Assembly: GCA_016193335.1 (NCBI GenBank)
Contig: JACPSK010000001.1
Span: 585,440-649,439, forward strand
DNA length: 64,000 nt
Source of the DNA: Candidatus Magasanikiibacteriota bacterium
GTDB lineage: Bacteria > Patescibacteriota > Patescibacteriia > Magasanikbacterales > UBA922
Direction of reading: 5' to 3'
Shown here: one piece after another, positions 7,397-64,000 of the stretch
Layout: each line of letters starts with the position of its first letter
How positions within the stretch are numbered: position 1 is the first letter of the stretch
The notes under the pieces: model-generated
Told to the model about the DNA's origin: nothing
Database searches by the model: none
The model's input: the letters and a program-made list of their open reading frames with translations, nothing else
Program-made: the position numbers and the translations under genes

Positions 7397-7424
7397 AAAA
7401 GACCCGGGAAACCGGGTTTTTTTA
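7394..7424. terminator. Bidirectional stem-loop terminator
   Basis: AAAAAAGACCCGGGAAACCCGGGTTTTTTT sits between the 3D-domain gene and the convergent tRNA-Cys. Confidence 0.6.
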
Positions 7425-7432
7425 AATTCATG

Positions 7433-7504
7433 AGGTACCGGTGGGAATCGAACCCACGAATAGAGGTTTTGCAGACCTCTGCCTTACCGCTTGGCTACGG
7501 TACC
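7433..7504 (-). tRNA. tRNA-Cys (GCA)
   Basis: The reverse complement folds as a cloverleaf: acceptor GGTACCG/CGGTACC, anticodon loop CTGCAAA, T-loop TTCGATT, U73 discriminator. CCA is not encoded. Confidence 0.85.
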
Positions 7505-7834
7505 ATTTTTGTAGATTCTTCTCGTAATAGAGTCCTATTTGCTTGTCAGGTTTTTTATTAAAGAATATGTAGGATATTTCCATCTTAAGATATCTTGTGA
7601 GCAGTGTTCTATGGCATTTATTGGTAAAGGCAGACTTGTTTGTTCTGTTGGTAGAGTTTCCTCAGCTTATCATGTATTTTAGTTGATTTCAAGCTCCAGT
7701 GCCGGTTATACCAGGGTAATCCTCCTCGGCCCGAATCTCTCTTAATTTTATTTTAAGTTTTTTGAATTAAAATACATGTCTTGCCACACATTGTTGACAG
7801 CGGTTGATGAATAGAGGATAATAAAGCTTCGAAT

Positions 7835-11113: not shown

Positions 11114-11908
11114 ATGGGAGACGCAAAGGTTGTGAGTTTGAGGGGCGAGCAGAATTCCAGCTCAGGTGGGCCGGGGGGACCGGAAAGGCCGTCTTCTTTC
11201 CTTGACAAGAGACGAGTTACCTGGCTGGTTACCGCTTTGGCGGTTTTGACGATGGCTCTTTTGTTTTTCGCCTTCGTTGCGGTCTGGACCAGGCTCAAGG
11301 CTTACGATGAGAGCCATGTCTTGGTGGGCGTTGAGAGTTTTCGCGCCTTGTCTTACCAAGCCTCATTGAGCGAGTCTTTGAGCAAAAACAACATTGTCTT
11401 TTATGAAGCGCTGAAACAGGCTCTGGACGAAAAGAAGTCCCTCGAGCTCCGGATTCAAGCCTTGCAGAAGGGACCCGGCTTTGGGGAAGGCTATGTTGAG
11501 GGCCGTCGGGAGGCCCTTGACCATGTGGCGCTACGTCTCGGCCTGGGAAGCGAGTTTTTCGACCAGCTTCTCTGGACTGCCGAGATTTGCCATGGTGACT
11601 CTAACTTGGTCTGGATGCGGGATCAACTCGCCGGCATCGCGGCCGGCTTTGGCTGCTCCTGCTACTGTTCAGAGCTGGTTAATCTGACAATTAAAGATGC
11701 CAGCCTGGAGCAGGTGCTTGCCTTTCTCGCAAGGGAATCCGGCGTTCCTGTGTTTAACGACGCCAAGATCACAGGAAACGTGACGTTGCGGTTCACAGAC
11801 ATACCCGCAAGTCTCGCGCTTCAGGCCATCGTAGGGCAGTTTGGCGCGGATCTGCGCTTCGAAGACGGCGCATACCATGTCGTGCCCTTTGTTGTAGGGG
11901 GAAAGTAA
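11114..11908 (+). CDS. GC-rich membrane-anchored protein with a C-terminal STN / secretin-N-like domain
   Basis: The ORF opens at TTG 11069. ATG 11114 is preceded by GGGAGGGG, so I prefer it. A single TM helix (LVTALAVLTMALLFFAFVAVW), a coiled-coil-like region, then VNLTIKDASLEQVLAFLARESGVPVFNDAKITGNVTLRFTDIPASLALQAIVGQFGADLRF. This resembles the STN / Secretin_N fold of TonB-dependent receptors and secretins. Codons are GC3-rich, unlike the neighbouring genes. Confidence 0.6.
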   Translation: MGDAKVVSLRGEQNSSSGGPGGPERPSSFLDKRRVTWLVTALAVLTMALLFFAFVAVWTRLKAYDESHVLVGVESFRALSYQASLSESLSKNNIVFYEALKQALDEKKSLELRIQALQKGPGFGEGYVEGRREALDHVALRLGLGSEFFDQLLWTAEICHGDSNLVWMRDQLAGIAAGFGCSCYCSELVNLTIKDASLEQVLAFLARESGVPVFNDAKITGNVTLRFTDIPASLALQAIVGQFGADLRFEDGAYHVVPFVVGGK

Positions 11909-11994: not shown

Positions 11995-12462
11995 TCATGC
12001 GGATAGGCGCTTATTTTTTTCATGCCGATCTGAGATTAATAGCAAGACTCCAAGTATAATGAGAATATCGGCCATATTGATGACTGAACCCAAAATGCGT
12101 ATATAATCAATAGTCGCCGAATACACAATACGGTCTATCAAATTTGAGATCGCTCCACTTGCGATGAAGGCGAGCGCGTAAAATGAAAGTATCGTTTTCT
12201 TTTCTGATTTTGAAAGATATAGGAAACCAATGAACAGAATAAGAAAACTAAGGGGGATGATCACATAATGGGGGATGGGTATGCCAAAAGCAACACCAGG
12301 ATTTTTTAAATATTCCCATCCGAGCCAGGGCTTGATGTAATAATAACTAAGATTTTGATGATATTCCGCAATATATTTTAAGATTTGGTCTGCTATTAAA
12401 AAAAGTCCACCGATTGCAGGAGCAATCAAGAGGTGGACTTTTTGTTTTTGCATATGCATCAC
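11995..12462 (-). CDS. lspA: Lipoprotein signal peptidase II
   Basis: 155 aa with four TM segments and the conserved blocks NPGVAFGI and INMADILIILGVLLL (FNxAD-like). Confidence 0.8.
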   Translation of the reverse strand: MMHMQKQKVHLLIAPAIGGLFLIADQILKYIAEYHQNLSYYYIKPWLGWEYLKNPGVAFGIPIPHYVIIPLSFLILFIGFLYLSKSEKKTILSFYALAFIASGAISNLIDRIVYSATIDYIRILGSVINMADILIILGVLLLISDRHEKNKRLSA

Positions 12463-18000: not shown

Positions 18001-18273
18001 ACGGGCGTTCATGGTGGAAATTTTCAGGAAGGCTACAAGGTATCTGTTATTGGTTTGCTCGCCAAAGATGATAGCGCGTTACAGATTTTGCCTCGTTCTT
18101 TGGATGATATCGAAGTTATAGATTCAATGTTGAAGGTAGACAATAGCGAAAGGGATTTTTCATTTATCATTAAAGGCAATGAACGCTTGTACCTGTTTAT
18201 TATTTTTTGTTCCATCGCCCTTATTTGCGGGATTATTTATCTGCGTAGGGTGAAAAGCAAAAAAATTCAATAA
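15043..18273 (+). CDS. Large secreted/surface protein with four lamin-tail-like domains, a PKD domain, an OB-fold-like region and a C-terminal TM anchor
   Basis: Repeated LTD signatures (IINEIGAYEKKDYEWIEVFN, YIFINEFVSYPNEGQTEWVELFN, IVISEIFPNPKGSDTSDEFIELYN, IEISEIFPNPSGLDDKEFIELYN). PKD motif WDFGDKSFSSSS..HHYSATGTF. C-terminal hydrophobic LFIIFCSIALICGIIYL followed by RRVKSKK. Confidence 0.75.
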   Translation: MEYILSRFLNMSLMVLTSLAFSFQTPEVSMIINEIGAYEKKDYEWIEVFNASDHETDMKDWSFWEQDVNHGLTLAQGEDSIVGVGEYALVVQNFGKFKELYPNVTSTIFDSSWASLNEGGEEIGLRDPEDNLAEHFVYMPAEEKSLERVEIFTDIYTEENWKKHPESNSAGFANYWAAQERAEDSTDIDFGEDFPEEQTGTQSVPESAEEAGTEFFNKTLVAQMELGATSTYVGVAVVFDASESYDNDGQILSYYWDFGDKSFSSSSLASHHYSATGTFMIELSVNDGYATNTASTSLKVEELFLGGKGENSSLDSGPQLGADALPNPLDPREYIFINEFVSYPNEGQTEWVELFNAASSSFQINGWRLRDGKGQIAFVSSTINGGAYILVELEKNVLNNSGDLIRLEDEKAVLVDQVAYGDWENEIGLTKMFSIPRAYSLGRFGDYTGKVYGLNVFKLTSLTSPGALNYWSGKGEELQPTHQSSLDIGSNSGGAVQNPKGLENISKDTSYTKDTFVSSSKIIYKKGEIVISEIFPNPKGSDTSDEFIELYNLADRSIDLSAWKLGDGSARRYAIDDVLLGPGEYRAFKRSETHISLNNTGAEEVLLFGPDAGLLDQVSYDGSHEGQAYMRNDRGTWFWTAEPSPGAGNILKNLDSVSSTASSTIQLKTQEEKSEEEFSFFVPDDFMFIEISEIFPNPSGLDDKEFIELYNRGSAAIDLAGLKLDDEEGGSRPYEFSDNTIIPAYSFRVFYKEETGLTLNNSFDSARLLLPGGEILQEIFFTDVIEGASFSRANNDAWDWTIILTPGAPNEIVFGNQTSPNTKAGLRSALPKSFAETQLGSLANYEAGDRIKVKGTVAVAPGVFGSQYFYMVDMGPLGSVSSSLGGVQVYMNKKDFPQLITGDYVQVAGELSDVRGEPRLKISAKEDIVKLDHVGLGSPGLLEISEIENRQLGGMIRVEGEITSLKSTYMFVDDGTGEIKVYFKKGTGVHGGNFQEGYKVSVIGLLAKDDSALQILPRSLDDIEVIDSMLKVDNSERDFSFIIKGNERLYLFIIFCSIALICGIIYLRRVKSKKIQ

Positions 18274-32895: not shown

Positions 32896-34644
32896 CTAGC
32901 TGTCCAGTCTGCTCGGTCTCAGACGAGCCATGTCGTGGACCATGAACCCCCGTCCAGAACCCAGGTCGGAAATGACTCCGGCTTCTTTGATTCTACCCAT
33001 GACTCGGATCACGGTCTCGAGCGTCATCCCGGTGAGCTCGCCGAGCCGTTGCCGGGTAAGATCCAAGGACACGAGGCGTCCACGGCTGTCTCCTTCCACG
33101 CCGAACCTGGTGGCGAGCAAGAAGAACAAGTAGCGTAGTCTCGTCTCCGCCGAGGCGTTGGCCAGCAAGCTTGCACGCAGAGCGTCTCTCTGCGCACGTC
33201 CGCCGAGGCGGCCCCAGAACAAGCTGCGCAATCCCGGGTCTTTCTGGAATTTCTCCCAGAATGTGGCCGATGGAACCCGAATCAATACACCAGGATCCAG
33301 GGTCAGGATAGTTTCCGTGTACTTGGTGGTGCCACAGTACATATCCCCAAGGATTTCTCCACTGCCGTGCACATCGAGAATGCCGGTGTACTCACCGTTT
33401 TCATATTCTCGGACAACGCGGCCAGAGAGCAGGAGGAAAACGTCCTCAGGATCTGCACCCTGTCGGTACACGTGGGCCCTGCGCCGGTAGGCTTCGATCT
33501 CGCCGAGATCAAGCAGGTAGCTGGGCCAAGTTCCGGGGAGTCCGCCTTCCCGCTTGATCTGGCTCGCTACACGGCTGATTCTGGCGTTCGCTTTTTCTCC
33601 GTGCGATTGATAGGCTATGCTGGGCCTAAATGCCGGAGGATCAGGCCGGTCAATAACCAGGGCAGAGGCATCCGTCCGAGTGTAGACAGGGTGTCCAGTA
33701 TCTGGTCTCTTTTTTTCAGTTGCCGCCTCGTCGTCCGGAACACGGGTTTCCTCGTCTTCTCGGCTGTCTTCATGGTCATCATCTTCCCATTCCAGATCAG
33801 CCGGTTCAGGCAAGTCCTCAGGCTTATCAGTGAGAGGCTGGTCGCCCTCAGCTCTTGCTTCTGCGGCCGCTGCTCTAAGGGCGCGTTCGGCCAGTTGCTG
33901 AAAATACTGAATGGCCCCTTTGACCGAGATCTTGGCCATGCCATGGTAAACGTTGTTCAGCTCTCGGAGAGCTGCGCGCATGGCATCGTGAGTAGTACAG
34001 AAACGAATCAGCACTTCTGCCACGCCCAGCTTCAGACGATCGTCTGCTACTGCCTCCTGTAAGTCTTCAGGGAGCTTCAAGAGGTCGAGTCGCTTGCAGA
34101 TATGACCCTGGGAACGGCCCACCTTCTTCCCGAGTTGGCCTTGGGTAAAGCCGCCTTCATCGATCGCTTGCTGGAAGGCGTGGGCTTCCTCAATCGGGTT
34201 GAGGGGCGTTCTGACCAGGTTTTCCACGAGGCCGATCATGTAGGACTGCGGATCAGCAACCCTGATGACCGCGCGGATCAACTTTCTGCCGAGCCTGACG
34301 TGCGCCCGCCAGCGAGTCTCGCCAGCCACTAACATAAACAAACCCGTCTCAGCATGATCAGGCGCTGGCTTCAACACCACGGCGCTGATCAGGCCGTCGG
34401 CCTCGATTGAGTCGGCCATCTGTTGGATAGCCTCCTCCGTGAAACGCTTTCGACCCTGTTTGGGGTCAGCCACAATCCGAGCTACGGGAACCATGTATTC
34501 CCTGCTCGGGGCTTCTTCAACGTCCTCTCGGTGAACGACTTCTGCAAGTGTGCTGATAGACATGCCTAATGCCTCCCGTATCTTGGTTTTCCGCAGGACA
34601 AAAGACCCTGGAATACAATATCTAACTACCAGTTCCATTGTCAA
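32896..34644 (-). CDS. GC-rich fusion protein: ParB/Spo0J-like N-terminal and HTH domains, an acidic linker, then a Crp/Fnr-type cNMP-binding domain with a winged HTH
   Basis: N-terminal ParB motifs (GETRWRAHVRLG, LVENLVRTPLNPIEEAHAFQQAIDEGGFTQGQLGKKVGRSQGHICKRLDLLKLP). Asp/Glu-rich linker. C-terminal cNMP-binding beta-roll (VFLLLSGRVVREYENGEYTGILDVHGSGEILGDM) and Crp-type HTH (TRQRLGELTGMTLETVIRVMGRIKEAG). A likely alternative start is MSISTLAEV at 34563, preceded by GGGAGG. GC3-biased. Confidence 0.7.
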   Translation of the reverse strand: MTMELVVRYCIPGSFVLRKTKIREALGMSISTLAEVVHREDVEEAPSREYMVPVARIVADPKQGRKRFTEEAIQQMADSIEADGLISAVVLKPAPDHAETGLFMLVAGETRWRAHVRLGRKLIRAVIRVADPQSYMIGLVENLVRTPLNPIEEAHAFQQAIDEGGFTQGQLGKKVGRSQGHICKRLDLLKLPEDLQEAVADDRLKLGVAEVLIRFCTTHDAMRAALRELNNVYHGMAKISVKGAIQYFQQLAERALRAAAAEARAEGDQPLTDKPEDLPEPADLEWEDDDHEDSREDEETRVPDDEAATEKKRPDTGHPVYTRTDASALVIDRPDPPAFRPSIAYQSHGEKANARISRVASQIKREGGLPGTWPSYLLDLGEIEAYRRRAHVYRQGADPEDVFLLLSGRVVREYENGEYTGILDVHGSGEILGDMYCGTTKYTETILTLDPGVLIRVPSATFWEKFQKDPGLRSLFWGRLGGRAQRDALRASLLANASAETRLRYLFFLLATRFGVEGDSRGRLVSLDLTRQRLGELTGMTLETVIRVMGRIKEAGVISDLGSGRGFMVHDMARLRPSRLDS

Positions 34645-41450: not shown

Positions 41451-42242
41451 TTAGCTCGAAGCGCTGGAGTATCGCTTGAGGGCGCTGTACCAAAAGCGCC
41501 GGGCGATAGAGAATAAAAGAATAGTAAAAAACAGCGTGTACAGTAAGATATACCAGGGCCAATGTCCGATAAGCAGCGAGGCACTCACCCAGCCATCGAA
41601 CGCGATCGGTATGAGAGTGAGCGTTATGATGCGGATGCTTTTCGGGAACACGTCAAGCGGATATTTGCCCATGGTGTTGAGCGCTTCCCACGCATCATTT
41701 ATATTATCGATGCGCAAGAACCAGAAACTGAGCGTGTTGATGATAAGCGACACTGAGTAGCGGATAATGACCGCGCAGACTATCACGAGTATGGCCGCCA
41801 CTATATATACGGGTCTGACTTCGATGTGGAAACGCGTTATGATCCATGTGAGGACAGGAATATGCAGTAGGAGGAGACGGTAGAGACTTCGCATCACAAA
41901 GGTATGGGTGGAAATGAGAAACAGCGATCCTACAGGACGAGTGAGATACATATCGAGTTTTCCGTCTGTTATAGTGTCCGGAATATTCCACATGTTGTAT
42001 TTCACGAACATGGTAAAAATTTCATCCACGATTACCCAGAGCAAGGTCAAGAGATACACTTCGTGTTTTTCCCAGCCCGCGATCGCGGGGGTGTGCGCGT
42101 AGATTACTTCGATAATAATGGCCATCATGCCGAGCCAAAGCGCGTTCGAAAACATATGGAGCCAGGTATCGGCGCGATACTCGGCTTCGTAGGAAACCGC
42201 GTTTAAAAAAAGGCGGCGGTAGATGCGCGATTGTTTTATCAT
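41451..42242 (-). CDS. ABC-2 family transporter permease, paralog 1
   Basis: 263 aa, six TM helices, conserved C-terminal ...ALKRYSSASS. Confidence 0.7.
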   Translation of the reverse strand: MIKQSRIYRRLFLNAVSYEAEYRADTWLHMFSNALWLGMMAIIIEVIYAHTPAIAGWEKHEVYLLTLLWVIVDEIFTMFVKYNMWNIPDTITDGKLDMYLTRPVGSLFLISTHTFVMRSLYRLLLLHIPVLTWIITRFHIEVRPVYIVAAILVIVCAVIIRYSVSLIINTLSFWFLRIDNINDAWEALNTMGKYPLDVFPKSIRIITLTLIPIAFDGWVSASLLIGHWPWYILLYTLFFTILLFSIARRFWYSALKRYSSASS

Positions 42243-52798: not shown

Positions 52799-53299
52799 CT
52801 AGATGTTTTTTTTGCTTGGGAGATAAAATAAAATTATCTGTCCGAATATAAAAAGCAGACTTGAACTGAGCGCTGAACCTATACAATATAAACAGATCGC
52901 TTTGATTACGAATACTTGCAAATAAGTAAACCACAGCGAGGCGAGAAGCCCGGCCCAGGTGAAATAGGCTGTGTAACGTAGAAGATTTTCTTTTTTGCGG
53001 TCAAGATAAGCTATCGTTAAAATTAAGATCAGAAAATAGTAGAGAGCCCCGAGCAGAGCTACGGGTAGTCCCAACACATGCGAATATGAGCTCGTTGCCA
53101 CCGTTTCACAGCCTTTGAGAATGGAACAGGATGGTATCTGCCCCATATAATCCTTAAAGCTCAGGTATGAGGCATCCGAGAAGCCAAAGAGGGCGCTTAT
53201 GATCATCGCGAAGGGGAGCCATTTAGGAAGCATTGATTGTGCTTTCGATGAGTTGTTTGAATTGTTCATAAGTCCCTGGATTGCTGATTCGTGTTCCAT
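52799..53299 (-). CDS. Vitamin K epoxide reductase (VKOR) family membrane protein; start uncertain, with candidates at 53299, 53233 and 53203
   Basis: CxxC active site (IPSCSILKGCETV) and a second Cys pair (CLYC) within four TM helices. Confidence 0.75.
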   Translation of the reverse strand: MEHESAIQGLMNNSNNSSKAQSMLPKWLPFAMIISALFGFSDASYLSFKDYMGQIPSCSILKGCETVATSSYSHVLGLPVALLGALYYFLILILTIAYLDRKKENLLRYTAYFTWAGLLASLWFTYLQVFVIKAICLYCIGSALSSSLLFIFGQIILFYLPSKKNI

Positions 53300-53891
53300 T
53301 TAAGAAAAAGGTTGGAGTCCCGGGAATACCCGAAGCAATACCGCTTTTATAATCTCGGTCGACTCGGTTTTGCGTTTCTTTTGATCGCAGATCTGTTTTG
53401 AATGTTTCGAGATCAAGACCAAGAGAAGAAGCGAGATTTATAAAAAATTCCTCAGGATTGTTTAGGCCGGTCCAGTCTGTTTGGGTATTGAACAGACTGT
53501 CGTGCATTTCCCAAAATTTTCCTTGTTTAGCGGCCGCTTCGGCCGCTTCGGCCGCCGGCTGGGCGTTTGGATGGATTTGCTTTAGAGGAAAATGTCGGTA
53601 CACCAGATATAATGTATCGGGCAACTCTTCGGATAATCGTTTGAGTAGCGGATATGTAGCGGCGCAGGCCGGGCATTGGAAATCACTGTATTCCACCAGC
53701 ACGGCAGGAGCTTGCTGATTCCCTTTGCCATGGTCCAACTCATTTATTTCTTCTGCCAGCTTTGCACTTTTTACGTTGGCAGTTTTTTCTCCTGAATTTG
53801 ATCCTAATTTAGCCAAAATAATAAGCAAGAGAACAGTGCCGAGTATGAAACCTCCCCAGAGGAAAATACTTTTTAGGTTATTTGTTTGCAT
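53223..53891 (-). CDS. DsbA-family thiol:disulfide oxidoreductase (secreted/membrane-anchored)
   Basis: N-terminal signal/anchor and the thioredoxin-fold active site FQCPACAATYP. Confidence 0.8.
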   Translation of the reverse strand: MQTNNLKSIFLWGGFILGTVLLLIILAKLGSNSGEKTANVKSAKLAEEINELDHGKGNQQAPAVLVEYSDFQCPACAATYPLLKRLSEELPDTLYLVYRHFPLKQIHPNAQPAAEAAEAAAKQGKFWEMHDSLFNTQTDWTGLNNPEEFFINLASSLGLDLETFKTDLRSKETQNRVDRDYKSGIASGIPGTPTFFLNGTRISNPGTYEQFKQLIESTINAS

Positions 53892-54000: not shown

Positions 54001-55281
54001 CTAGGTATTTTTCAATTCAAGAACAGCGAGGCTTTCTATATGAGGTGTGCGCGGGAAAAAGTTGTACAGTTTAAAGAATCGTGGAGTGTAATTTTCGCCC
54101 AGCAATTTTATGTCTCTGGCCTGAGTAGGTATATTGCAAGAAAGGTATATAACACGTTTTGGTTTCTTTGCGTGGAGTGTTTCAATAATTCGTTTATGGA
54201 GGCCTGCCCGCGGCGGGTCGAAGACAACAATGTCGTTTGGGGAAATGAGATCAAGGGCTCGTTCGGCCGGCAGACAGAAAGCCTCAATATTTTTTAAACC
54301 GAGCTTATCTATGTTTTCTTTTGCGTATTCTATGGCCTCTTCATTACTGTCCACCAAGATAGCTTTACTTAGAATATGAGAAAGAGGAATACTTATAGCT
54401 CCCACTCCTGAGTAATAATCGAGCAAAGTGGCTCCCGGATCCACAAAGCTTGAGATGTCTTTGAGCGCTTGTTCGAAAACAGGAATGTTTATTTGAAAAA
54501 AACTGAGTAACCCGAATTTGAGTTTGGTACCCAACAGTTCCGCGTTTAAATGATGGAGTCCTTCATGGTGAAGCAGTTCGGTGGGCACAGAGGCCGGACT
54601 TTTGTGCGTGGAATAATAGAGCTGGAAACCAAGAAAATATTCAGACAAGGTCGGGTATTTGTTAAAGCGGATTCTATCTTTAATAAATAAAGCGGCTATG
54701 CTTTGGCCCTGTCCGTTACTTCGTATAATTAAAGACTTGAGACTTCTGATGGGTATTTTTTCTTCGTTTATCCATTTCAAAATATGAGCTGCGGACTTAT
54801 TTATAATATCCTCAGCCAGGAGAGAACTTTGGATCGGCATTTTGTATTTTTTTCCTCTTTCAAAAAAAGCCAGAGATATTTTTTTATGTTCAAGTTCAGT
54901 AAAACTGAATTCTATTTTATTGCGGTACCCGTAGGAAGCTTCGTTAGCATAGTATTCCAGATTTTTTTCTTCCAAAGCAAGTCCTCCGTTTTTTCTATAA
55001 GCTTCCAAAGCTATGCTTTTTTTCATTTCCGCTTCATATGCCGGATCCATCATTTCCCAAGGCCCGGAAGAAAGAAAATGCGGCTCTTTGGGATTGATTC
55101 TGTGTGGAGAACTTTTGATGATACTTGTGGCGACAGTTTCTATATAATCTTTTTTATTTTTTATAATCTCAAACCCCAGTTCTTCATCCGGGAGCGCGTT
55201 CCACACAAAGGCCACTTTGCCATTGAACCTGCCTAAGCCTTGGCCGCCAAAGACAAGTTTTTCTATATATAAGGTATTCAT
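54001..55281 (-). CDS. Class I SAM-dependent RNA (uracil-5)-methyltransferase, TrmA/RlmD family, with an N-terminal TRAM domain
   Basis: 426 aa. TRAM-like N-terminus, SAM motif LDYYSGVGAISIPL, catalytic region DPPRAGL and C-terminal Cys. Confidence 0.8.
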   Translation of the reverse strand: MNTLYIEKLVFGGQGLGRFNGKVAFVWNALPDEELGFEIIKNKKDYIETVATSIIKSSPHRINPKEPHFLSSGPWEMMDPAYEAEMKKSIALEAYRKNGGLALEEKNLEYYANEASYGYRNKIEFSFTELEHKKISLAFFERGKKYKMPIQSSLLAEDIINKSAAHILKWINEEKIPIRSLKSLIIRSNGQGQSIAALFIKDRIRFNKYPTLSEYFLGFQLYYSTHKSPASVPTELLHHEGLHHLNAELLGTKLKFGLLSFFQINIPVFEQALKDISSFVDPGATLLDYYSGVGAISIPLSHILSKAILVDSNEEAIEYAKENIDKLGLKNIEAFCLPAERALDLISPNDIVVFDPPRAGLHKRIIETLHAKKPKRVIYLSCNIPTQARDIKLLGENYTPRFFKLYNFFPRTPHIESLAVLELKNT

Positions 55282-55523
55282 GTTTTCACAGGATATAGTA
55301 TGGAGGCTTATTGGTCAATGAATGATATATGAGCTTGAGATTGACATCCAAAGCTATCTATGGTATAAAATCTAGTCAAAAGTTTCTCCGACTGTTTTTT
55401 TCTCTTTATTAACACAAAATAAAGGGCAGAAGTCAGTCGGGAGAAACGCCCGACCAGTTGGCGGTCTGGGGCTCCGGCATGGCGCTGGAGTGAGAGGCTG
55501 CCATTGCGTAGGAGGAAGTCCCC

Positions 55524-56399
55524 ATGGGACGACGTAGTAGGAGTGAAATCTCCGCGATCATGAGCGGAGCAGGTGTCGTTACCGCTGTCTGGACCAAGCT
55601 CGACGCCGCCGTGAGGAAGCTCGACAGCGCGGCTGCGGATGCCTGTCTCTATCGGCTGGCGACGGAGGAGGGAGACGATGTCATCCTCGAGATGGCGAAG
55701 GCTGCCGTGGCGGCACAGAAGAAGGGCACGGCGGCTCCTGTGGCGGCGCCGCAACTGCCGCCTCCGTCCGTCATAGACATCTCGAAGTTCTTCGCGCCGG
55801 TCGCGGACAGTGAGGCCATCATCCTGCTCACGCCGCAGTTCGGTAGCGAAGAGGCGGCGCGGATCGTGTACCAGTGCCGTCAGCTCGCCATGGACGAGGG
55901 CTACACCGGCTTCATCTTCTGGCGCGCCGCGGCCGGCTTCCTGTGGCGGACGCACGGTCCGCTTTTCGGCACCTGCCGCGAGAACTGGAAGTACCTCCAG
56001 ACCTGGAGGCTGAAGAACGACCCGACCACGACCGACTCCCTGGCCTTCTTCGTCCCGCGGCTGCTCACTGGCAGCACGGGCAAGGCGGTCACGGACCAGC
56101 GCAAGCTCCTCGTCGAGACGCGAGCCAAGTACACGCTCCCCGAGCCCTTCCTCAAGGACTTTGGTTCGGCCGCGTACGTCGCCGGACTGACGCTCTCGCA
56201 CCACCGCATCACGAGCGAGCGCACGCCGCTCGACCTGCTGTGGGCGCGCTGCGAAACGTTCCGCGAGGATGGCGGTCGCCTCGGCTTCGGCTTCTTCCTC
56301 GAGTCGAGCGGCCTCGGCTGCCTCAACTGGGACGACGGCCTCCCGGTCGACTTCATCGGCATCTTCCCCCTGGGGGTGGTGCCGATCCTCGGTCACTAG
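55524..56399 (+). CDS. DGR target (variable) protein; GC-rich; the C-terminal about 38 aa are encoded by the variable repeat
   Basis: RBS AGGAGG precedes ATG 55524. Strong GC3 codon bias on the plus strand. The C-terminus ...REDGGRLGFGFFLESSGLGCLNWDDGLPVDFIGIFPL is encoded by the VR. Confidence 0.85.
   Translation: MGRRSRSEISAIMSGAGVVTAVWTKLDAAVRKLDSAAADACLYRLATEEGDDVILEMAKAAVAAQKKGTAAPVAAPQLPPPSVIDISKFFAPVADSEAIILLTPQFGSEEAARIVYQCRQLAMDEGYTGFIFWRAAAGFLWRTHGPLFGTCRENWKYLQTWRLKNDPTTTDSLAFFVPRLLTGSTGKAVTDQRKLLVETRAKYTLPEPFLKDFGSAAYVAGLTLSHHRITSERTPLDLLWARCETFREDGGRLGFGFFLESSGLGCLNWDDGLPVDFIGIFPLGVVPILGH
56259..56372 (+). repeat. DGR variable repeat (VR)
   Basis: About 114 bp aligning to 56739-56852 with about 20 mismatches. 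Every mismatch is at an A in the TR copy (e.g. GGC/GAC, TTC/AAC, CTC/AAC, GTC/AAC). The 3' end ATCGGCATCTTCCCCCTG is identical in both (IMH-like). Confidence 0.9.
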
Positions 56400-56738
56400 G
56401 ATCCTCGGTACTGACACGAAGTCGGTACCTTGGTCCATCGGTCTTTGGGCCCCACCCGCAACGCATTTCGGTGCAACGCGCGTGAGGCTTCTTCTTTTAT
56501 ATACAAAATGTGATATACTTTTTTTGCATTATACCGACAGCACCGGCGTCCACGGATGCCGGCCGATAATGTCTGGCAACAGAATTGTAGAATTACAAAA
56601 CGTACGCGTTTTGTAAGAACATCCCTGTTGTTTGTGGGTTCACACACCCCGTGTTGGACGTTAAGAGACAGCGGTTTCACATTCGATACAGCTCGGAGAG
56701 TTTTCAACGAGCAGTGGCACGGACAGCGCTCAACACTT

Positions 56739-56852
56739 TTCCACGAGGATGGCGGACGCCTCGACTTCGGCAACTTCAACGAGTCGAACGGCCTCAACTG
56801 CAACAACTGGAACGACGACAACCCGAACGACAACATCGGCATCTTCCCCCTG
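56739..56852 (+). repeat. DGR template repeat (TR)
   Basis: Carries AAC (Asn) codons wherever the VR has diversified codons. It lies between the target gene and the avd/RT genes. The listed ORF 56556-56885 merely reads through it. Confidence 0.9.
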
Positions 56853-56898
56853 ATGATGTGTGCACCCAAAAGACGATTCCTCTGAATCGTCTTTGACG

Positions 56899-57282
56899 TT
56901 ATTTCAAACTGTGTAGCCACCCGCCGATCATTTTACCGATTACTGCCAGGCGTTCTGACAATTGCGCGTATTTGTTATTGTCCAGTGCTTTGATTTCCCA
57001 AAGAATTTGCAGAAAGAATTTTAACGCGTCAAATTGAGCACTTAATTTTTTAACAATGGCTAGCTTGTTTGTCCGTTCCGCATAACCGGCCGCGAGCGCC
57101 AGTGATAAAATATCGGTAAAAATTGCATCAATTTTTATACCCAATGAATACCGTGTGAGTCGTGGCAAATGAATTAAAAAACTATGCCAGAGTTTATAGG
57201 CGTTACTCAAACCATCAACGATCGGAATGTAGCTCTGGGGGGGGGGATTCCTAGTTTCGGATTGCGTAAGCAATTGCTTCAT
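56899..57282 (-). CDS. avd: Accessory variability determinant (Avd)-like four-helix-bundle protein (start placed at MKQLL; the ORF opens at 57330)
   Basis: About 127 aa. ...LPRLTRYSLGIKIDAIFTDILSLALAAGYAERTNKLAIVKKLSAQFDALKFFLQILWEIKAL...ERLAVIGKMIGGWLHSLK resembles Bordetella-phage bAvd and the 23S-rRNA-intervening-sequence four-helix-bundle family. It is on the strand opposite to the TR and RT. Confidence 0.7.
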   Translation of the reverse strand: MKQLLTQSETRNPPPQSYIPIVDGLSNAYKLWHSFLIHLPRLTRYSLGIKIDAIFTDILSLALAAGYAERTNKLAIVKKLSAQFDALKFFLQILWEIKALDNNKYAQLSERLAVIGKMIGGWLHSLK

Positions 57283-58281
57283 AGCTATGGTGATATTATT
57301 TCTATATCCAATCTTCTTGCCGCTTGGCAAGAGTTTGAAGTTGGAAAGAGTAAGAAATATGACGTTGTTCTGTTTGCGGATAGGTTAATGGACAACATCC
57401 TAGCACTCTATACGGATTTAGTAAACCGGACATATATCCACGGTGGTTATCGTGAATTTCGCATCAACGATCCCAAACCGCGTCTGATTCACAAAGCGAG
57501 TGTGCGCGACCGTTTGCTACATCATGCGGTACATAGAATGCTCTATCCTTTTTTTGATCGAATTTTTATTTTTGATTCCTTTTCTTGTCGGACCAATAAG
57601 GGCGTGCGTGCGGCGATTAACCGATTCAGAAAATGCGCGCACAAGGTCGGGCGCAACCATACACGCACAGTATGGGTCTTGAAATGTGATATTCGAAAGT
57701 TTTTTGCGAATATTGATCATGAAATTTTGTTGCGTATTCTTGATTATTATATTCCGGATAAAAGAATTGTGGATTTGCTGGAGAATATTATTGTAAGTTT
57801 TTCTATGACATCTGGTACTTCAGTTGGTTTGCCGTTGGGAAATTTGACCTCGCAGTTATTTTCCAACATTTATTTAGACCGACTCGATAGATGGGTGAAG
57901 CATCAGTTAAAAGAAAAGCATTATATTCGTTACGCGGATGATTTTGTGTTTTTATCCGCGGACAGAAATTATTTGCTGTCCTTGATTCCACAGGTGCAAC
58001 ATCTTTTATCCTGCACCTTAAAATTAGATCTGCATCCGAATAAATTTTTTTTAAAAACTATTGCGTCAGGTGTGGATTTTTTGGGCTGGATACACTTTTC
58101 AGATCACCGTGTACTTCGAAAAGTGACAAAACGGCGAATGACGAGAAAATTGGCGGAAAATTTCAAACCGGAAGTCCTGCAGTCGTATTTGGGATTACTC
58201 TCGCATGGGAATACGTTTAAGCTGCAAGAGACGATTAAGAATCAATTTTGGTTGGGCGGCACGCATATGTTAATGGGGTAG
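57184..58281 (+). CDS. DGR reverse transcriptase
   Basis: DGR-RT N-terminal block (NLLAAWQEFEVGKSKKYDVVLFADRLMDNILALYTDLVNRTYIHGGYREFRINDPKPRLIHKASVRDRLLHHAV), motif GLPLGNLTSQLFSNIYL and the catalytic IRYADDFVF. An alternative TTG start near 57262 is possible. Confidence 0.9.
   Translation: MPEFIGVTQTINDRNVALGGGIPSFGLRKQLLHSYGDIISISNLLAAWQEFEVGKSKKYDVVLFADRLMDNILALYTDLVNRTYIHGGYREFRINDPKPRLIHKASVRDRLLHHAVHRMLYPFFDRIFIFDSFSCRTNKGVRAAINRFRKCAHKVGRNHTRTVWVLKCDIRKFFANIDHEILLRILDYYIPDKRIVDLLENIIVSFSMTSGTSVGLPLGNLTSQLFSNIYLDRLDRWVKHQLKEKHYIRYADDFVFLSADRNYLLSLIPQVQHLLSCTLKLDLHPNKFFLKTIASGVDFLGWIHFSDHRVLRKVTKRRMTRKLAENFKPEVLQSYLGLLSHGNTFKLQETIKNQFWLGGTHMLMG
57237..57246. repeat. G10/C10 homopolymer tract inside the avd coding sequence and the RT 5' region
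   Basis: CTGGGGGGGGGGATTCC. It encodes GGG in the RT frame (if the ATG at 57184 is used) and NPPPQ in avd on the opposite strand. Confidence 0.85.
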
Positions 58282-58486
58282 TAGAGCTACTATAAGTAAG
58301 TAAGCTTGATAAAGCCGTTTTTTTATTTTATAGTCAAAAGTCAATTTGCGTGAGACGCAAAGACATCGCAATGGATTGCGGCTTTTTTGCGTCTTGCGAC
58401 CGGAATATCGGTTTCGAGACAGACTCGGGCTTTGCTCGGGTTTCAGGACGACAATTGGGTTTGAGAATGAAAAGAGGAGACAGCAA

Positions 58487-59944
58487 GTGAACAGGTTGGC
58501 CAAAATTTTTGTTGTTTTGTTCTATGTGTCTTGTTCCTGTCCTGAAGAGGACGGGGCGGTCATTGCGGATGTTTCGAGTTTTGGCAAGGACGCCGCCGCT
58601 TCCGTTGACACGACCGTGGCCGATATGAACGGCCAACTCGGGTTGTGCTACGTGGCTGAAGATGGCACGCCTTGCGACGATGAGAACGCCTGCACCACGG
58701 GCGATGAGTGCGAGGATGGACATTGCATCGGCGCCACGAGCGTGGTCTGCAAGAGCGACAGCGCTTGCGTGCCGACGAGCTGTGACCCACAGACCGGCTG
58801 TCTTATTGGCGAGACCTTGCCTGATGGCTCGGCCTGCAGCTTGGCTTGCCATGTGGAGGCTTACTGCGAAGCAGGCGACTGCTTGCCTGCCCAAGGCTCC
58901 AAGGTCCAATGTCCGAAGAGCGAGAACCCTTGCGTGGATCACCTGGAGTGCGACTCGGCCAACGGCCAGTGCACGATCCAGATCTTCAAGCCCGAGGGAG
59001 CTTCTTGCGACACGGACGTGAACACTTGCACGTTGGAGACCTGTGACGGTAACGGCCTATGCGCGGCTCAAGGCAAGAACGATTGCGCCGGCCTCAAGGC
59101 CATTGATCCGTGCTGGGCTTACCAGTGTTTGCCGGGCAAGGGTTGCGTGAAGCAACCGGGCGTGTTCTTCTTCAGCCTCTCTTGCGACGACGGGAGTCCT
59201 TGCACGATCAACGACGAATGTCAGCTCTCCGAGGGCGGCCTCGGTGGTTGCAAGGGAACTCCGCTGAAGACGAACGACGGCAACCCCTGCACCAGCGACT
59301 CCTGTGTCGCGGGTGAGGTCTTGCACGAGCCCATCAACGGCGCGCCCTGCGACGACGGCAACCCCTGCAGCGTCTCGGTCTGTGAGGGCAAGATCTGCGT
59401 CTACTACTCGCCGAGCGACTGCACAGACGGCAACCCCTGCACGGACGACGCCTGCAGTGACACCAGCGGCTGCGTCTACTTCGTCAACGACGGCAACCCT
59501 TGCGACGACGGCAACCCCTGCACCAGTGACTTTTGCAAGCAAGGGGTTGGCTGTGAGGCCGAAGTGCTGGTCGCGACGCCCTGTGAGGATGGGAGTCTCT
59601 GTAGCCTCGAGGACTTCTGCTTCGCGGGTGTCTGTCAGCCTGGCGCGAAGAGTCTCGGCTGCACAGACGGCAACCCCTGCACAGACGACGCCTGCCAACC
59701 GGCCAAGGGCTGCGTGTTCACGAACAACGCCAAGCCCTGCGACGACGGCAGCGCCTGCACCGAGGGGAGCTTCTGCAAGAACGGCTCTTGCAGTGGCTAC
59801 GCGGTGCTGAAGACCTGCCTGGACAACAACTCTTGCACCGAGGACATCTGCACCCCGCTGATTCCGGACTGCGTCTTCCCCACGAAGACCGATGGCGTCC
59901 CTTGCGGCGGAGACAAGATCTGTCTCTCGGGCGTCTGCCTGTAG
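58487..59944 (+). CDS. GC-rich secreted cysteine-repeat protein (CDDGNPC / DGNPCTDDAC repeats, Myxococcales-type Cys-rich repeat-like)
   Basis: GTG 58487 is preceded by AAGAGGAG. Lipoprotein-like signal MNRLAKIFVVLFYVSCSC, then at least 12 tandem Cys-rich units (...DGNPCTSDSC..., APCDDGNPCSVSVC, TDGNPCTDDACSDTSGC, NPCDDGNPCTSDFC, TDGNPCTDDACQPAKGC, KPCDDGSACTEGSFC). The ORF opens at TTG 58346. Confidence 0.75.
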   Translation: MNRLAKIFVVLFYVSCSCPEEDGAVIADVSSFGKDAAASVDTTVADMNGQLGLCYVAEDGTPCDDENACTTGDECEDGHCIGATSVVCKSDSACVPTSCDPQTGCLIGETLPDGSACSLACHVEAYCEAGDCLPAQGSKVQCPKSENPCVDHLECDSANGQCTIQIFKPEGASCDTDVNTCTLETCDGNGLCAAQGKNDCAGLKAIDPCWAYQCLPGKGCVKQPGVFFFSLSCDDGSPCTINDECQLSEGGLGGCKGTPLKTNDGNPCTSDSCVAGEVLHEPINGAPCDDGNPCSVSVCEGKICVYYSPSDCTDGNPCTDDACSDTSGCVYFVNDGNPCDDGNPCTSDFCKQGVGCEAEVLVATPCEDGSLCSLEDFCFAGVCQPGAKSLGCTDGNPCTDDACQPAKGCVFTNNAKPCDDGSACTEGSFCKNGSCSGYAVLKTCLDNNSCTEDICTPLIPDCVFPTKTDGVPCGGDKICLSGVCL

Positions 59945-60285
59945 AGAGGCCTTTGTTCTTTTGATGATCCGGACCTGATATTCGTGAACTCAGGTCCTCG
60001 CTTCCCGTCTAGATGAAATATTCCTCTGAACAGGAAGAAAAAAGAAGTTATTTTGGCTTCTTTTTTATTTGAGATGAAAATTAAGTTTCCTTTAAGGAGC
60101 ATCTAAATTTGCTTATGATCTTTGTCGTTAAAGTCTCCTGGATATTTGCTTTTAAACAGGCTAATTTTTTTGTTGGTATGTTAATTGAAGCTTTTTGTAC
60201 TACTATGTTATACTTATTTGGTAGTAATTTCATTATTAGAATATAGGTCGGTTCTAATAATAAATCATTCTTAAAATAATATAGT

Positions 60286-60699
60286 ATGGCTAAAAAAGTC
60301 GTCATGACCTTGGGGGTAGTATTTGTGCTCGTGGGTCTCCTGGGTTTTGTAAACGATCCGGTTCTCGGGCTGTTTGAAGTTGATCTTTGGCATAATCTCG
60401 TTCACTTGGTGAGTGGCGTGCTGGCTCTTCTTTTTGCCATGAAAGGAGAAGAAGGAGCAAAGATGTTCGCGAAAGTATTCGGCGTAGTGTATGCTTTGGT
60501 CGCCGTTCTTGGACTTTTGCTCCCGGGTGACATGCTCCTTGGTCTTATCGAAGTAAATTTGGCAGATGATTTGCTTCATGTGCTTTTGGCTCTTGTATTT
60601 TTGTATGCTGGTTTTGCCAAGGCGTCAGGAGCTCCTTCGATGCCCGCACAGAATCCTCCAATGTCTTCTTCCGGAATGGATTCACACATGCATTCGTAA
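60286..60699 (+). CDS. DUF4383-like small membrane protein
   Basis: 137 aa with four TM helices and the DUF4383-like pattern (GLLGFVNDPVLGLFEVDLWHNLVHLVSG). Confidence 0.5.
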   Translation: MAKKVVMTLGVVFVLVGLLGFVNDPVLGLFEVDLWHNLVHLVSGVLALLFAMKGEEGAKMFAKVFGVVYALVAVLGLLLPGDMLLGLIEVNLADDLLHVLLALVFLYAGFAKASGAPSMPAQNPPMSSSGMDSHMHS

Positions 60700-62711: not shown

Positions 62712-64000
62712 CTAGCTCTCCTTGGACTCGGAGATTGCTCCTTGCAAGATTCTTTGCCCTATGGCCGAAAGCGTGGAAACACGTTCACGGTTGGGCCCGT
62801 CCACATAGAGACGGAGCTTGCCTTCTGTACCGCTGGCTCTGAACATGACGTAGGTGTGGTCGGCCAAGTTGATTCTTGTGCCGTCCATGGTGTTTACGTC
62901 AAGAACGCTTGTGAATGATTTGCGAGCCACTTCTACGGCTCGCGCAAGGACATCCACCTTCGCGGAGTCTGAGACCTCGAAGCCATGCTCTTCGTGGTAG
63001 AAGCGCGGCAGTTCGGCGGCAAGTTCGCTGAGGAGCTTGCCGGTTCTCGCCATGATCTCGAGCATCTTCGCCACGGCAAAGACCCCATCATACCAGATGA
63101 AGCCGCCTTTCACAAAGGCGTACTTTGCCGAGTTCTCATAGGCAAAGGCTGCTCTTTCGCGCTTGATTGCCGTGCCGGTATCCGGCTGGCCAATCTTGCA
63201 GTAGCAGACTCGAGCGCCGAGCTCTTCGCAAACAGCTTCGATGAGCTTGCTGGAGTTTACCGGTGTTACCACGGTCTCGCCGCGTCTTACCAGGTACTTG
63301 GCAAAGATCGCGCCGATCACGTCTTCGCCGACAGCTTCGCCCTTCTCGTTGATGAAGAGGACACGGTCGGCATCGCCATCGAAGCAGACTCCCATGTGGC
63401 AGGAGTCGCCGACAACTCGACGCAGAGCTTCGCCGCAGCTCGAGGCACGGCATTCGCTCTTGCGATCTGGCACTTCCTTCGGCTCAGTAAAGATCTGGAC
63501 CACATCACAGCCCAGGGCTCTGAACAAAGGTCCGGCAACTCCGCCTGCGGTGCCGTTGCCAGCATCCACGAGGAGCTTGGGGGCCTCTTCGCCAAACTTC
63601 AGAGAGCTGATGCCCTCGATGTCCAGTCGTTCAAGCAAGGCCCTCGTATAGATTGTTTCAGAGCGTTCAGTCGACACCCTTTGGCTGTGACCGAGGGACA
63701 AGGGTTTGGCGCTGTGAAGCCTTCCGGATTCGAACCAGCGCTCTATCACACTAGTGACCTCTATGTCACAGTAGGTGCCATCGCCATTCACCAAGATGAT
63801 CCCAATCCGGTTCGGCTCCATGTGAGAACCGGTGATCTCGATGCCCCCATCTACAGCGTCCTCTCCCAGGAAGCTCAGCACGGAGAACATCCCGGTGGAC
63901 ATCTGGCCCAAATCCAGTACATCCGCGCCTGCGGACATGGCGCCAGCCATCGCGGCCGCCGCCAAAGCCTGAGCGCCGTTGCGCTGGTCATGCCCTATGG
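62712..64000 (-). CDS. GC-rich phosphohexomutase (phosphoglucosamine mutase / phosphomannomutase family); the N-terminus lies beyond the window end
   Basis: Active-site-like loop GIEITGSHMEPNRIGIILVNGDG (TASHNP-type) and the four-domain alpha-D-phosphohexomutase layout. The reading frame is open to the window edge. GC3-rich. Confidence 0.7.
   Translation of the reverse strand, partial: IGHDQRNGAQALAAAAMAGAMSAGADVLDLGQMSTGMFSVLSFLGEDAVDGGIEITGSHMEPNRIGIILVNGDGTYCDIEVTSVIERWFESGRLHSAKPLSLGHSQRVSTERSETIYTRALLERLDIEGISSLKFGEEAPKLLVDAGNGTAGGVAGPLFRALGCDVVQIFTEPKEVPDRKSECRASSCGEALRRVVGDSCHMGVCFDGDADRVLFINEKGEAVGEDVIGAIFAKYLVRRGETVVTPVNSSKLIEAVCEELGARVCYCKIGQPDTGTAIKRERAAFAYENSAKYAFVKGGFIWYDGVFAVAKMLEIMARTGKLLSELAAELPRFYHEEHGFEVSDSAKVDVLARAVEVARKSFTSVLDVNTMDGTRINLADHTYVMFRASGTEGKLRLYVDGPNRERVSTLSAIGQRILQGAISESKES

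Follow-up and report, generated by a model that had tools for sequence, protein, structure and literature searches.

Within a 64-kb window of Candidatus Magasanikbacteria DNA (the window is the whole stretch analysed, 64,000 nucleotides), a GC-rich gene packed with cysteine codons follows a DGR reverse transcriptase (RT). The locus raises the question of what this protein is, whether it belongs to the DGR and where the gene came from.

A one-gene GC-rich island

The open reading frame encodes 485 amino acids and a stop codon ending at position 59944 (Table 1), and its product is identical to NCBI protein HYY51_02895 (P0001 among our homologs) from a Candidatus Magasanikbacteria MAG. Cysteine accounts for 64 of the 485 residues (13%), and G, D, S, N and P are also abundant. 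The gene has a GC content of 0.615 and a GC3 of 0.786, compared with a GC3 of 0.421 in the RT and 0.438 in avd. The 46 other ORFs of the window have a mean GC3 of 0.463 (sd 0.076), which places the gene at z = +4.3. The bias was present in all amino acids (AAG 95% versus 17% in the background, AAC 100% versus 34%, GAG 79% versus 23%), bearing out an earlier note on this DNA that had described GC3-biased codon usage unlike that of the RT. Codon choices were alike in this gene and the DGR target.

The sharp GC shift at both ends of the gene could also arise if a piece of Myxococcota DNA had been wrongly joined to CPR sequence during assembly. Besides the NCBI MAG, three independent Logan assemblies of different runs contained both GC-rich/AT-rich junctions, at 99.9-100% identity. 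This recurrence rules out an assembly chimera. In addition, the GC island coincides with a single gene, which brings a Shine-Dalgarno-like site and an AT-rich signal-peptide region of its own; this also argues against mis-joining, and we give contamination practically no credence.

Table 1. Features of the cysteine-repeat gene and its surroundings, in window positions
Feature	Position	Strand	Basis or remark
LspA, lipoprotein signal peptidase II	11995..12459	-	PF01252, E=4.5e-25; putative supporting machinery
VKOR	52799..53299	-	PF07884, E=8e-25; putative supporting machinery
DsbA-like thioredoxin	53223..53891	-	PF13462, E=3.5e-27; PF01323, E=1.8e-17; putative supporting machinery
DGR target gene, 291 aa (context)	55524..56399	+	GC3 0.87; VR at 56259-56372
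DGR template repeat, TR (context)	56739..56852	+	
avd, bAvd / DivGenRetAVD (context)	56899..57330	-	Native composition, GC3 0.44
DGR reverse transcriptase (context)	57184..58281	+	Native composition, GC3 0.42
Promoter-like site, TTGATA-17-TATAGT	58306..58334	+	RT/cysteine-gene intergenic region; consensus scan, 10/12 matches
Long imperfect hairpin	58349..58398	+	Inverted repeat I8
Shine-Dalgarno-like AGAGGAG	58473..58479	+	7 nt before the GTG at 58487; direct reading
CDS, 485-aa Dicty_CTDC cysteine-repeat lipoprotein (predicted)	58487..59944	+	GTG start, stop included
Predicted signal peptide and lipobox, aa 1-18 (MNRLAKIFVVLFYVSC-SC)	58487..58540	+	PROSITE PS51257-type regex
Acidic Ala/Val/Ser-rich linker, aa 19-52, predicted disordered	58541..58642	+	AF2 pLDDT <50, residues 1-50
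Irregular N-terminal Cys-module region, aa 53-288	58643..59350	+	Collinear alignments; AF2 pLDDT 73-94
Regular C-terminal four-Cys array, aa 289-485	59351..59941	+	Regex units
Stem-loop GGACCTGA...TCAGGTCC	59971..59997	+	27 nt past the stop codon; direct reading

The consensus scan found nine promoter-like sites between the RT and the gene against 4.1 expected, so that the site listed in Table 1, a putative promoter, is weak evidence. The long hairpin contains an inner G+C stem followed by CUUUUUU, and the terminator scan called a terminator-like site at this stem (58366-58381). RNA folding of 58282-58490 gave a minimum free energy of -68.9 kcal/mol (z = -4.6). This hairpin could terminate the RT transcript or else serve as a leader structure of the cysteine gene; Rfam gave no match for the region, and a search of 55000-60400 returned sub-threshold chance matches only. 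The stem-loop past the stop codon, which has no T-run and was not called by the terminator scan, could be a transcript-end structure.

The repeats belong to the Dicty_CTDC family

The repeats of the protein belong to Pfam PF00526 (Dicty_CTDC), to which the whole protein matched at 46.8 bits (E = 2.5e-12; gathering cutoff, 27 bits) in four stretches, the best at residues 392-412. Four-cysteine units of the form C-x5-C-x4-C-x5-C were located by regular expression at residues 88-105, 312-329, 339-356 and 392-409. The cysteine columns were invariant in 43 homologs, and nearly all of the best 120 homologs carried PF00526 in their precomputed annotation. The earlier note had instead guessed at TIGR02232/DUF4215-type repeats. 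TIGR02232 (criterion, 20.8 bits) gave no match to the protein at E<=0.1, nor at E<=10; three positive controls (P0011, P0019 and P0035) matched it at 24.6-32.9 bits. Membership in the DUF4215, EGF or furin-like families was likewise rejected, with no Pfam match at E<=0.1; besides PF00526, this search gave only a sub-threshold match to Adt-1 (13.4 bits). TIGR02232/DUF4215 is similar in being an acidic cysteine-rich repeat that is common in Myxococcota and occurs alongside CTDC arrays in the three control proteins, but it is a different repeat, and the annotation is corrected accordingly from Myxococcus TIGR02232 to Dicty_CTDC. A match to another well-known family was what the earlier note had itself named as refuting its guess.

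With Dicty_CTDC the protein shares a four-cysteine unit of ~24 residues, the D-G-N-x-C-T-x-D-x-C core and an extracellular tandem array. It differs in being a bacterial (CPR) lipoprotein, as predicted, in having a second unit that alternates with the first and in the irregularity of its N-terminal half. In the C-terminal array, C-x5-C-x4-C-x5-C units (e.g. CTDGNPCTDDACSDTSGC) alternate with C-x5-C-x5-C-x4-C units (e.g. CDDGSACTEGSFCKNGSC). This array contains an internal duplication with a spacing of 240 nt, whose DNA repeat D1 (59416-59455 and 59656-59695) is 95% identical, and the longer DNA self-match of the gene covers 109 nt at 78% identity. The motif DGNPC occurs six times, every time in the C-terminal ~45% of the protein. 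Thus, the earlier description of a protein built almost entirely of tandem DGNPCTDDAC-type units was right in that cysteine modules run throughout, but it overstated their regularity. The irregular half carries the signatures xPCWxYxC and QCPxSExPCVDxLECDSAxGxCT and defines a subfamily to which GC-rich, Myxococcota-type lipoproteins also belong.

A predicted lipid-anchored rod

The N-terminus combines R3 and K6 with the lipobox match FVVLFYVSCSC at Cys18, in agreement with the secreted, lipoprotein-like signal seen previously. The criterion was a regular expression rather than a trained predictor: an N-terminal K/R, a hydrophobic stretch and [LIVMFWSTAG]2-[LIVMFYSTAGCQ]-[AGS]-C with the cysteine at position 15-35. 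The predicted lipidated residue is Cys18 or, alternatively, Cys16. The same expression matched 43 of 105 Met-starting homologs, including all six of the closest subfamily members as seen by eye, and the N-terminus aligned with that of an Azambacteria homolog (P0099). Acidic linkers comparable to that in Table 1 are also present in homologs.

The AlphaFold2 model had a mean pLDDT of 82, with residues 1-50 disordered and residues 51-485 folded as all-beta hairpins. A search of the PDB by sequence gave no match, and the fold search with the model gave only weak resemblances, to disulfide-rich adhesin or disintegrin modules. Neither search yielded a solved structure or an experimentally characterised bacterial homolog. 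PF00526 itself has no solved structure (PMC8078820). The papers searched mention bacterial Dicty_CTDC only in passing. The Gal/GalNAc lectin of Entamoeba histolytica, with the cysteine-rich region of its heavy chain, and the disintegrin/ADAM cysteine-rich modules are among the closest systems that we could list.

These features suggest the following scheme. The precursor would be exported by Sec, receive a lipid at the lipobox Cys18 and be cleaved by LspA, which is encoded within the window; no Lgt gene was seen in the same 64 kb. The mature protein would then consist of the lipid anchor, an acidic disordered linker of ~34 residues and a rod of ~430 residues, composed of some 16-17 small Dicty_CTDC-type beta-hairpin modules with four cysteines each. 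Its 62 cysteines would form disulfides outside the cytoplasm, plausibly by means of DsbA and VKOR, whose genes lie 5 kb upstream and which could catalyse this oxidation. The rod would act as a rigid surface stalk or adhesin on the Magasanikbacteria cell. Most likely, then, the protein is a lipid-anchored, disulfide-bonded beta-hairpin rod, with the role, the lipidation and the disulfide pairing all deduced from sequence and model.

A cysteine content of 13%, together with many Asp and Asn residues, might alternatively suit a metal-binding or redox-buffering protein of the metallothionein type. However, the signal peptide and lipobox imply an oxidising compartment in which DsbA and VKOR are available, and the strict cysteine spacing in four-cysteine modules is typical of disulfide-knit domains, with which the confident beta-hairpin model agrees. 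We therefore consider a metallothionein-like role very improbable.

The module arrays of relatives end in heads of several kinds (Kelch propeller, LamG, FGE-sulfatase/CLec-like or fibrinogen-like) at the C-terminus, and the protein of the window has none. Large cysteine-rich extracellular proteins with signal peptides have been described in CPR Peribacteria, where a role in attachment or rigidity was proposed (Anantharaman et al. 2016, PMC4736985). Those proteins were noted to resemble Myxococcus cysteine-rich repeats weakly, and an enzyme that forms disulfides is encoded in that genome (PMC4736985). They are much larger than the protein of the window, averaging 1655 aa with about 7% cysteine, and lie in a cluster of 14 genes (PMC4736985). 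The rod described here would be one more example of the CPR cysteine-rich extracellular proteins that are thought to mediate host-cell attachment.

The gene is not part of the DGR

All 20 mismatches between TR and VR fell at TR adenines, and the DGR target family comprised 240 representatives. When the 64 kb were scanned with the non-A positions of the TR, the known VR alone matched (100%), and the best match inside the cysteine gene reached 64-68% over 31-33 positions. The earlier opinion that the gene has no VR copy and is probably not a second target is thus upheld. Similarities to the TR of 23-27 nt (repeat families D2, D6 and D7; 70-78% identity) were rejected as a cryptic VR, being composition effects of AAC, GAC and GGC. 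The protein had no Pfam match to a CLec/FGE-sulfatase-type or other known variable-domain fold, and the modelled beta-hairpin cysteine modules continue to its C-terminus.

A functional partnership with the DGR could still be imagined, in which a stalk or scaffold displays or binds the diversified 291-aa protein and was co-acquired with it. The gene follows the RT on the same strand at a distance of 205 nt, its codon usage is similar to that of the target, and some proteins of other organisms combine CTDC arrays with FGE-sulfatase (CLec-like) domains (P0027, P0029 and a 2549-aa protein at locus L004). However, no RT was found near P0029 on its contig, the DGR target is without a convincing signal peptide, and the promoter-like site and the terminator-like hairpin stand between the RT and the cysteine gene. 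Furthermore, we compared 80 loci whose RTs were 52-64% identical, 45 of which had at least 1.7 kb downstream of the RT. Neither a CTDC homolog nor a real ORF with at least 6% cysteine was found near any of these 80 RTs, including all 45 with the longer downstream sequence, and so the gene seems to stand beside the DGR by chance. The earlier suggestion that it had arrived together with the DGR target module was therefore not supported: RT and avd, with a GC-rich gene on either side, are native in composition, and a GC-rich target is usual throughout the clade (see below) and hence is no mark of co-acquisition. We consider a functional partnership improbable.

The cysteine gene is neither a DGR target nor a conserved DGR accessory gene, and its position after the RT is thus incidental. 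Removing it from the DGR cassette keeps catalogues of DGR targets clean.

Relatives and probable origin

Ranked by local phmmer/blastp among 127 retrieved homologs, the closest collinear relatives were P0082, P0104, P0117, P0111, P0056 and P0080, with 41-45% identity over ~240 aa of the irregular N-terminal half in single-domain alignments. Two of these best relatives, P0056 and P0111, are from Myxococcota MAGs, and 10 of the 16 named homologs were Myxococcota or 'Deltaproteobacteria', in line with the deltaproteobacterial or myxobacterial affinity raised earlier. A scan of genome contigs with the protein gave four loci, three of them in Myxococcales or Deltaproteobacteria, although its patterns were too specific. 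The six relatives form a subfamily of GC-rich genomes that shares with our protein the lipobox, the acidic linker and the ~240-aa region with NPCWxYxC and QCPxPxxPCVDxLxCDSATGxCT. Its members are 556-827 aa long (the record of P0111 is partial), and several run on into a Kelch beta-propeller, LamG-like or other domains, whereas the protein of the window ends in plain CTDC repeats. In genomes of 60-71% GC, the GC content of the homologous genes equalled that of their flanks. For instance, the contigs of P0056 and P0104 have 63-70% GC and the genes are native in composition, in contrast to the gene of the window, which is a GC outlier in a genome of 45% GC.

Of four CPR genomes, three had CTDC genes with outlying GC3. 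Besides the window, these were Azambacteria L005, where four CTDC paralogs had GC3 of 0.70-0.85 versus 0.46-0.53, and Uhrbacteria L006 (0.73-0.77 versus ~0.5). In the fourth, Uhrbacteria L094, the GC3 of the CTDC gene was native (0.485 versus 0.45-0.50), as expected of an older resident. Homologs native to CPR genomes with similar GC content, which the earlier note had named as evidence against a foreign gene, therefore exist in Uhrbacteria L094, but the other CPR copies are GC3 outliers.

Horizontal acquisition is indicated by the GC3-rich codons together with the close relatives, all of them Myxococcota where named. The gene was probably acquired from a GC-rich, Myxococcota-like lineage, with direction and source deduced from this affinity. 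The best non-self identity was 38-45%, which leaves no close donor and does not establish that the gene came recently from any sampled lineage. Searches of plasmids, phages and PHROG gave no match, and the gene had no integrase, tRNA or flanking repeat beside it. A search for the empty syntenic site with eight neighbouring window proteins among the 80 RT loci found none; it gave one unrelated DsbA match only, which was uninformative.

Alternatively, the gene could be a long-term CPR resident whose GC3 is kept high by a gene-specific force, such as GC-biased gene conversion in often-recombining surface or repeat genes, or by a cause shared with DGR targets. Such residence would fit the GC3 anomaly shared by the L005 and L006 genes, the lack of a donor above 45% identity, the collinearity of Azambacteria P0099 from the signal peptide onward, the similar codon choice of the DGR target and the GC3 excess of small targets over their RTs (33 of 34 loci). 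However, the native GC3 of the L094 copy indicates that high GC3 is not an inherent trait of the CTDC family in CPR, and the PCWxYxC and QCPxSExPCVD signatures, which were absent from the retrieved CPR homologs, occur in proteins of GC-rich genomes, two of these proteins being from named Myxococcota. Long-term residence is possible but doubtful. Taken as a whole, we think it rather probable that this is a stand-alone surface-lipoprotein gene that came from a GC-rich, Myxococcota-like lineage and is incidental beside the RT. It would then document likely gene flow from such bacteria to CPR.

GC3-rich targets across the RT clade

In this RT clade, the small DGR target was GC3-richer than its own RT in 33 of 34 loci. 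The part of the target ahead of the VR already showed this excess (mean +0.18; Wilcoxon p = 1.7e-6). A GC-rich target is consequently no evidence of co-acquisition. The 33 of 34 targets, together with the CTDC outliers in three of four CPR genomes, would also fit an unrecognised process that keeps a class of CPR genes for surface or interaction proteins GC3-rich, the cysteine gene and the DGR target included, so that their shared codon usage would be more than a simple HGT scar. This process could be intense exchange between lineages combined with GC-biased gene conversion, or selection acting on mRNA or translation, but we judge the existence of such a class unlikely. In a related reading, the Myxococcota affinity of the cysteine protein would point to a host or gene-exchange partner of the episymbiont. 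The systematically higher GC3 of small targets relative to their own RT and avd warns against taking GC deviation in DGR loci as evidence of horizontal transfer, and this side finding may prove more useful than that on the cysteine gene.

Repeat family and architecture of the cysteine-rich protein

AGAGGAG lies 7 nt before the GTG start (58487) of the cysteine-repeat gene downstream of the diversity-generating retroelement (DGR), and its product has the same sequence as the NCBI hypothetical protein HYY51_02895 (Candidatus Magasanikbacteria MAG). A longer reading from TTG at 58346 is unlikely, because NCBI calls the protein at 485 aa and the alignment with the Azambacteria homolog P0099 begins at residue 1. 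The opposite-strand ORFs 58334-58942 and 59057-59698 were dismissed as shadows of this GC-rich gene.

The product contains 64 Cys (13%), with Gly, Asp, Ser, Asn and Pro also abundant, and four stretches of it match the Pfam family Dicty_CTDC (PF00526, hereafter CTDC; 46.8 bits, cutoff 27). The earlier note had assigned the repeats to the TIGR02232/DUF4215 type. This assignment must be replaced: TIGR02232 gave no match at E<=0.1 or E<=10, the same model in the same search matching three homologs (P0011, P0019 and P0035), and neither DUF4215 nor EGF or furin-like families were among the Pfam matches. The description as a secreted cysteine-repeat protein stands, on a PROSITE-type lipobox pattern that predicts lipidation and on an array of four-Cys units. 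The gene is a further example of an already known protein kind.

In the AlphaFold2 model (mean pLDDT 82), residues 51-485 are predicted with confidence, as a string of beta-hairpins; the pTM of 0.40 is as expected if the protein is rod-shaped. Within the gene, 59416-59524 and 59656-59761 are duplicates at 240-nt spacing (95% identity over a 40-nt core, 78% over 109 nt), which indicates a probable repeat expansion later than the split from its relatives.

Features of the cysteine-repeat gene, its product and the neighbouring DGR
Feature	Position	Strand	Remarks
Cysteine-repeat gene (CDS)	58487-59944	+	GTG start, stop codon included; 485 aa
Signal peptide with PROSITE-type lipobox	Cys18		pattern match
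Acidic linker	aa 19-52		disordered in AlphaFold2 model
Irregular Cys-module region	aa 53-288
Regular array	aa 289-485		C-x5-C-x4-C-x5-C units alternating with C-x5-C-x5-C-x4-C units
VR of DGR	56259-56372
TR of DGR	56739-56852
avd	56899-57330	-
RT of DGR	57184-58281	+
Promoter-like site	58306-58334	+	in spacer between RT and cysteine-repeat gene, just upstream of hairpin
Extended hairpin, 50 nt	58349-58398	+	inner terminator-like stem and U-run

Codon composition

The gene has 61.5% GC and a GC3 of 0.786, compared with 0.421 in the RT gene, 0.438 in avd and a mean of 0.463 (sd 0.076) in 46 other window ORFs (z=+4.3), confirming a GC3 bias unlike that of the RT. AAG accounts for 95% of Lys codons (background, 17%), AAC for 100% of Asn codons (34%) and GAG for 79% of Glu codons (23%), and the bias is not caused by the amino-acid make-up of the repeat. 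An assembly chimera was ruled out because three independent assemblies reproduce both junctions with the AT-rich flanks at 99.9-100% identity.

GC3 is also elevated in the window genes for a ParB_N/HTH_ParB, cNMP-binding and Crp-HTH fusion (32896-34638, -; 0.63), a phosphoglucomutase-family protein (62712-63965, -; 0.69), a 264-aa membrane-anchored protein with no function assigned (11114-11908, +; 0.64) and an ABC-2 permease (41451-42242, -; 0.63). Judged from these genes, the host genome is a compositional mosaic.

Relationship to the DGR

The DGR in the window is real, with 20/20 TR/VR mismatches at TR adenines. P0128, from another assembly, is 99% identical to the target. The two differ at three VR codons only (E248V, G254D and F257N), each at a TR-adenine position, so the DGR is, or was until recently, active in this population. 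The avd gene is opposite in strand to TR and RT, and its maximal ORF meets that of the RT head-to-head, in a 147-nt overlap. In one gene call avd was trimmed to 81 aa, which would remove part of the bAvd domain match (aa 50-141).

The cysteine-repeat gene is not a target of this DGR, nor is it one of its conserved accessory genes, because it has no VR, its adjacency is not conserved, and a promoter-like site and a terminator-like hairpin occupy the spacer. Scanned with the non-adenine TR positions alone, the whole window yielded no second VR, in agreement with the earlier view that the gene is not a target; the best TR match inside it (64-68% over 31-33 positions) is a composition effect. Adjacency was assessed in 80 metagenomic loci with RTs 52-64% identical to the window RT, 45 of them extending 1.7 kb or more beyond the RT on its downstream side and 35-38 with 3 kb or more on either side. 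None of the 80 carried a homolog of the protein or a real Cys-rich ORF. The spacer between RT and gene is 205 nt long, and a 209-nt segment spanning it folds with z=-4.6. The hairpin, for which Rfam gave no match, could act as a leader or attenuator instead of terminating RT transcripts, since the promoter-like site sits just upstream.

Co-acquisition with the DGR target module, which the earlier note had proposed, is rejected: the gene is absent from the related RT loci assessed, and target composition lends the proposal no support. The GC3 of the window target gene (55524-56399) is 0.87, above that of the cysteine-repeat gene and far from that of the RT (0.42). Across 40 related loci with a detectable TR/VR pair, window included, GC3 was on average 0.205 higher in the target than in the RT. 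When duplicate loci and the VR itself were left out, the pre-VR part still exceeded the RT in 33/34 loci (mean +0.18; Wilcoxon p=1.7e-6); avd and flanks were similar to the RT. Extremes were L011 (0.82 vs 0.34), L017 (0.90 vs 0.40), L078 (0.89 vs 0.51) and, taken as a whole gene, the window target (0.87 vs 0.42), and the two loci with large targets of 650-710 aa (L074 and L081/L087) showed no excess. Given the excess in 33 of 34 loci, a GC-rich small target beside an AT-rich RT and avd is the norm in this RT clade, and is therefore no sign of co-acquisition.

P0027, P0029 and locus L004 (1906-9555) combine a lipoprotein signal and a long CTDC array with a C-terminal FGE-sulfatase (CLec-like) domain, a fold typical of DGR variable proteins. 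No RT was found near the P0029 gene on its 7.85-kb contig.

Homologs and origin

The homolog search returned 2416 proteins at E<=1e-3. No close donor is known, the best non-self identity being 38-44%. Among the best 120 of the 2416, 16 non-self matches had named organisms: ten were Myxococcales, Myxococcota or 'Deltaproteobacteria' MAGs, three were CPR (one Azambacteria, two Uhrbacteria), one was Binatia and one Phycisphaerae. Three of four matches in the genome collection were Myxococcales or Deltaproteobacteria.

Because bit scores between repeat proteins are misleading, the irregular N-terminal half was compared on its own. Its alignments with P0082, P0104, P0117, P0111, P0056 and P0080 were collinear and single-domain (41-45% identity over ~240 aa), with the next tier at 34-38%. 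The lipobox, the acidic linker and signature segments such as NPCWxYxC and QCPxPxxPCVDxLxCDSATGxCT are common to all six. P0056 and P0111 come from Myxococcota MAGs, and the suspected Myxococcota affinity was upheld; the surrounding DNA has 63% GC for P0056 and 70% for P0104.

Homolog GC equals flank GC in each of the GC-rich genomes covered (L004, L007-L010, L091 and L092). In CPR, four CTDC paralogs of Azambacteria L005 have GC3 of 0.70-0.85 vs 0.46-0.53 in neighbours, two of Uhrbacteria L006 have 0.73-0.77 vs about 0.5, and the CTDC gene of Uhrbacteria L094 has 0.485, the same as its neighbours. The simplest reading is that the family is native to GC-rich Myxococcota-like bacteria and entered CPR at different times. 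That the GC3-richness of CPR genes is more than a scar of transfer seems unlikely to us; its main ground is the unexplained GC3 excess of small DGR targets. If entry was staggered in this way, the gene in the window would belong with the less ameliorated CPR copies. The original observation is confirmed and its first interpretation partly supported.

A syntenic locus without the gene was not found among the 80 related RT loci, where the search was uninformative. Plasmid and phage searches gave no relative of the protein, and no integrase, tRNA or flanking repeats were found at the gene. The L005 paralogs (423-1184 aa) lie in a ~14-kb GC-rich island (Candidatus Azambacteria JACRAK010000032.1, 7523-21225) that also holds two Ala/Pro-rich membrane proteins (GC 0.63-0.70) and an embedded AT-rich 135-aa ORF (GC3 0.29) and adjoins AT-richer glycosyltransferase genes. 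In L094 (Uhrbacteria RIFOXYB2_FULL_45_11), the annotated CTDC gene is directly followed by a second, uncalled Cys-rich CTDC-type ORF (6152-7950, frame 3), broken by an N run; the GC of the two (~0.47) is native.

Predicted surface role

The protein would be exported by Sec, lipidated at Cys18 and then cleaved; the window encodes LspA (PF01252, 11995-12459). Its 62 mature Cys could be oxidised to up to 31 disulfides, giving a rigid rod that the flexible acidic linker would tie to the membrane. An overlapping pair 5 kb upstream, a DsbA-like thioredoxin (53223-53891, -) and VKOR (52799-53299, -), is a plausible oxidative-folding system for it. In relatives, this array carries varied heads (Kelch, LamG-like, fibrinogen-like and FGE-sulfatase domains), which suggests that the CTDC array is a generic stalk or spacer. 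In the window protein the array stands alone, without a head, and may therefore have a ligand or partner of its own. For CPR Peribacteria, Cys-rich extracellular proteins have already been described, with a proposed role in attachment (PMC4736985). Another large putative surface protein of the window (15043-18273, +; 1076 aa), with four Lamin-tail domains, a PKD domain and an OB-fold, is of native composition (GC3 0.40).
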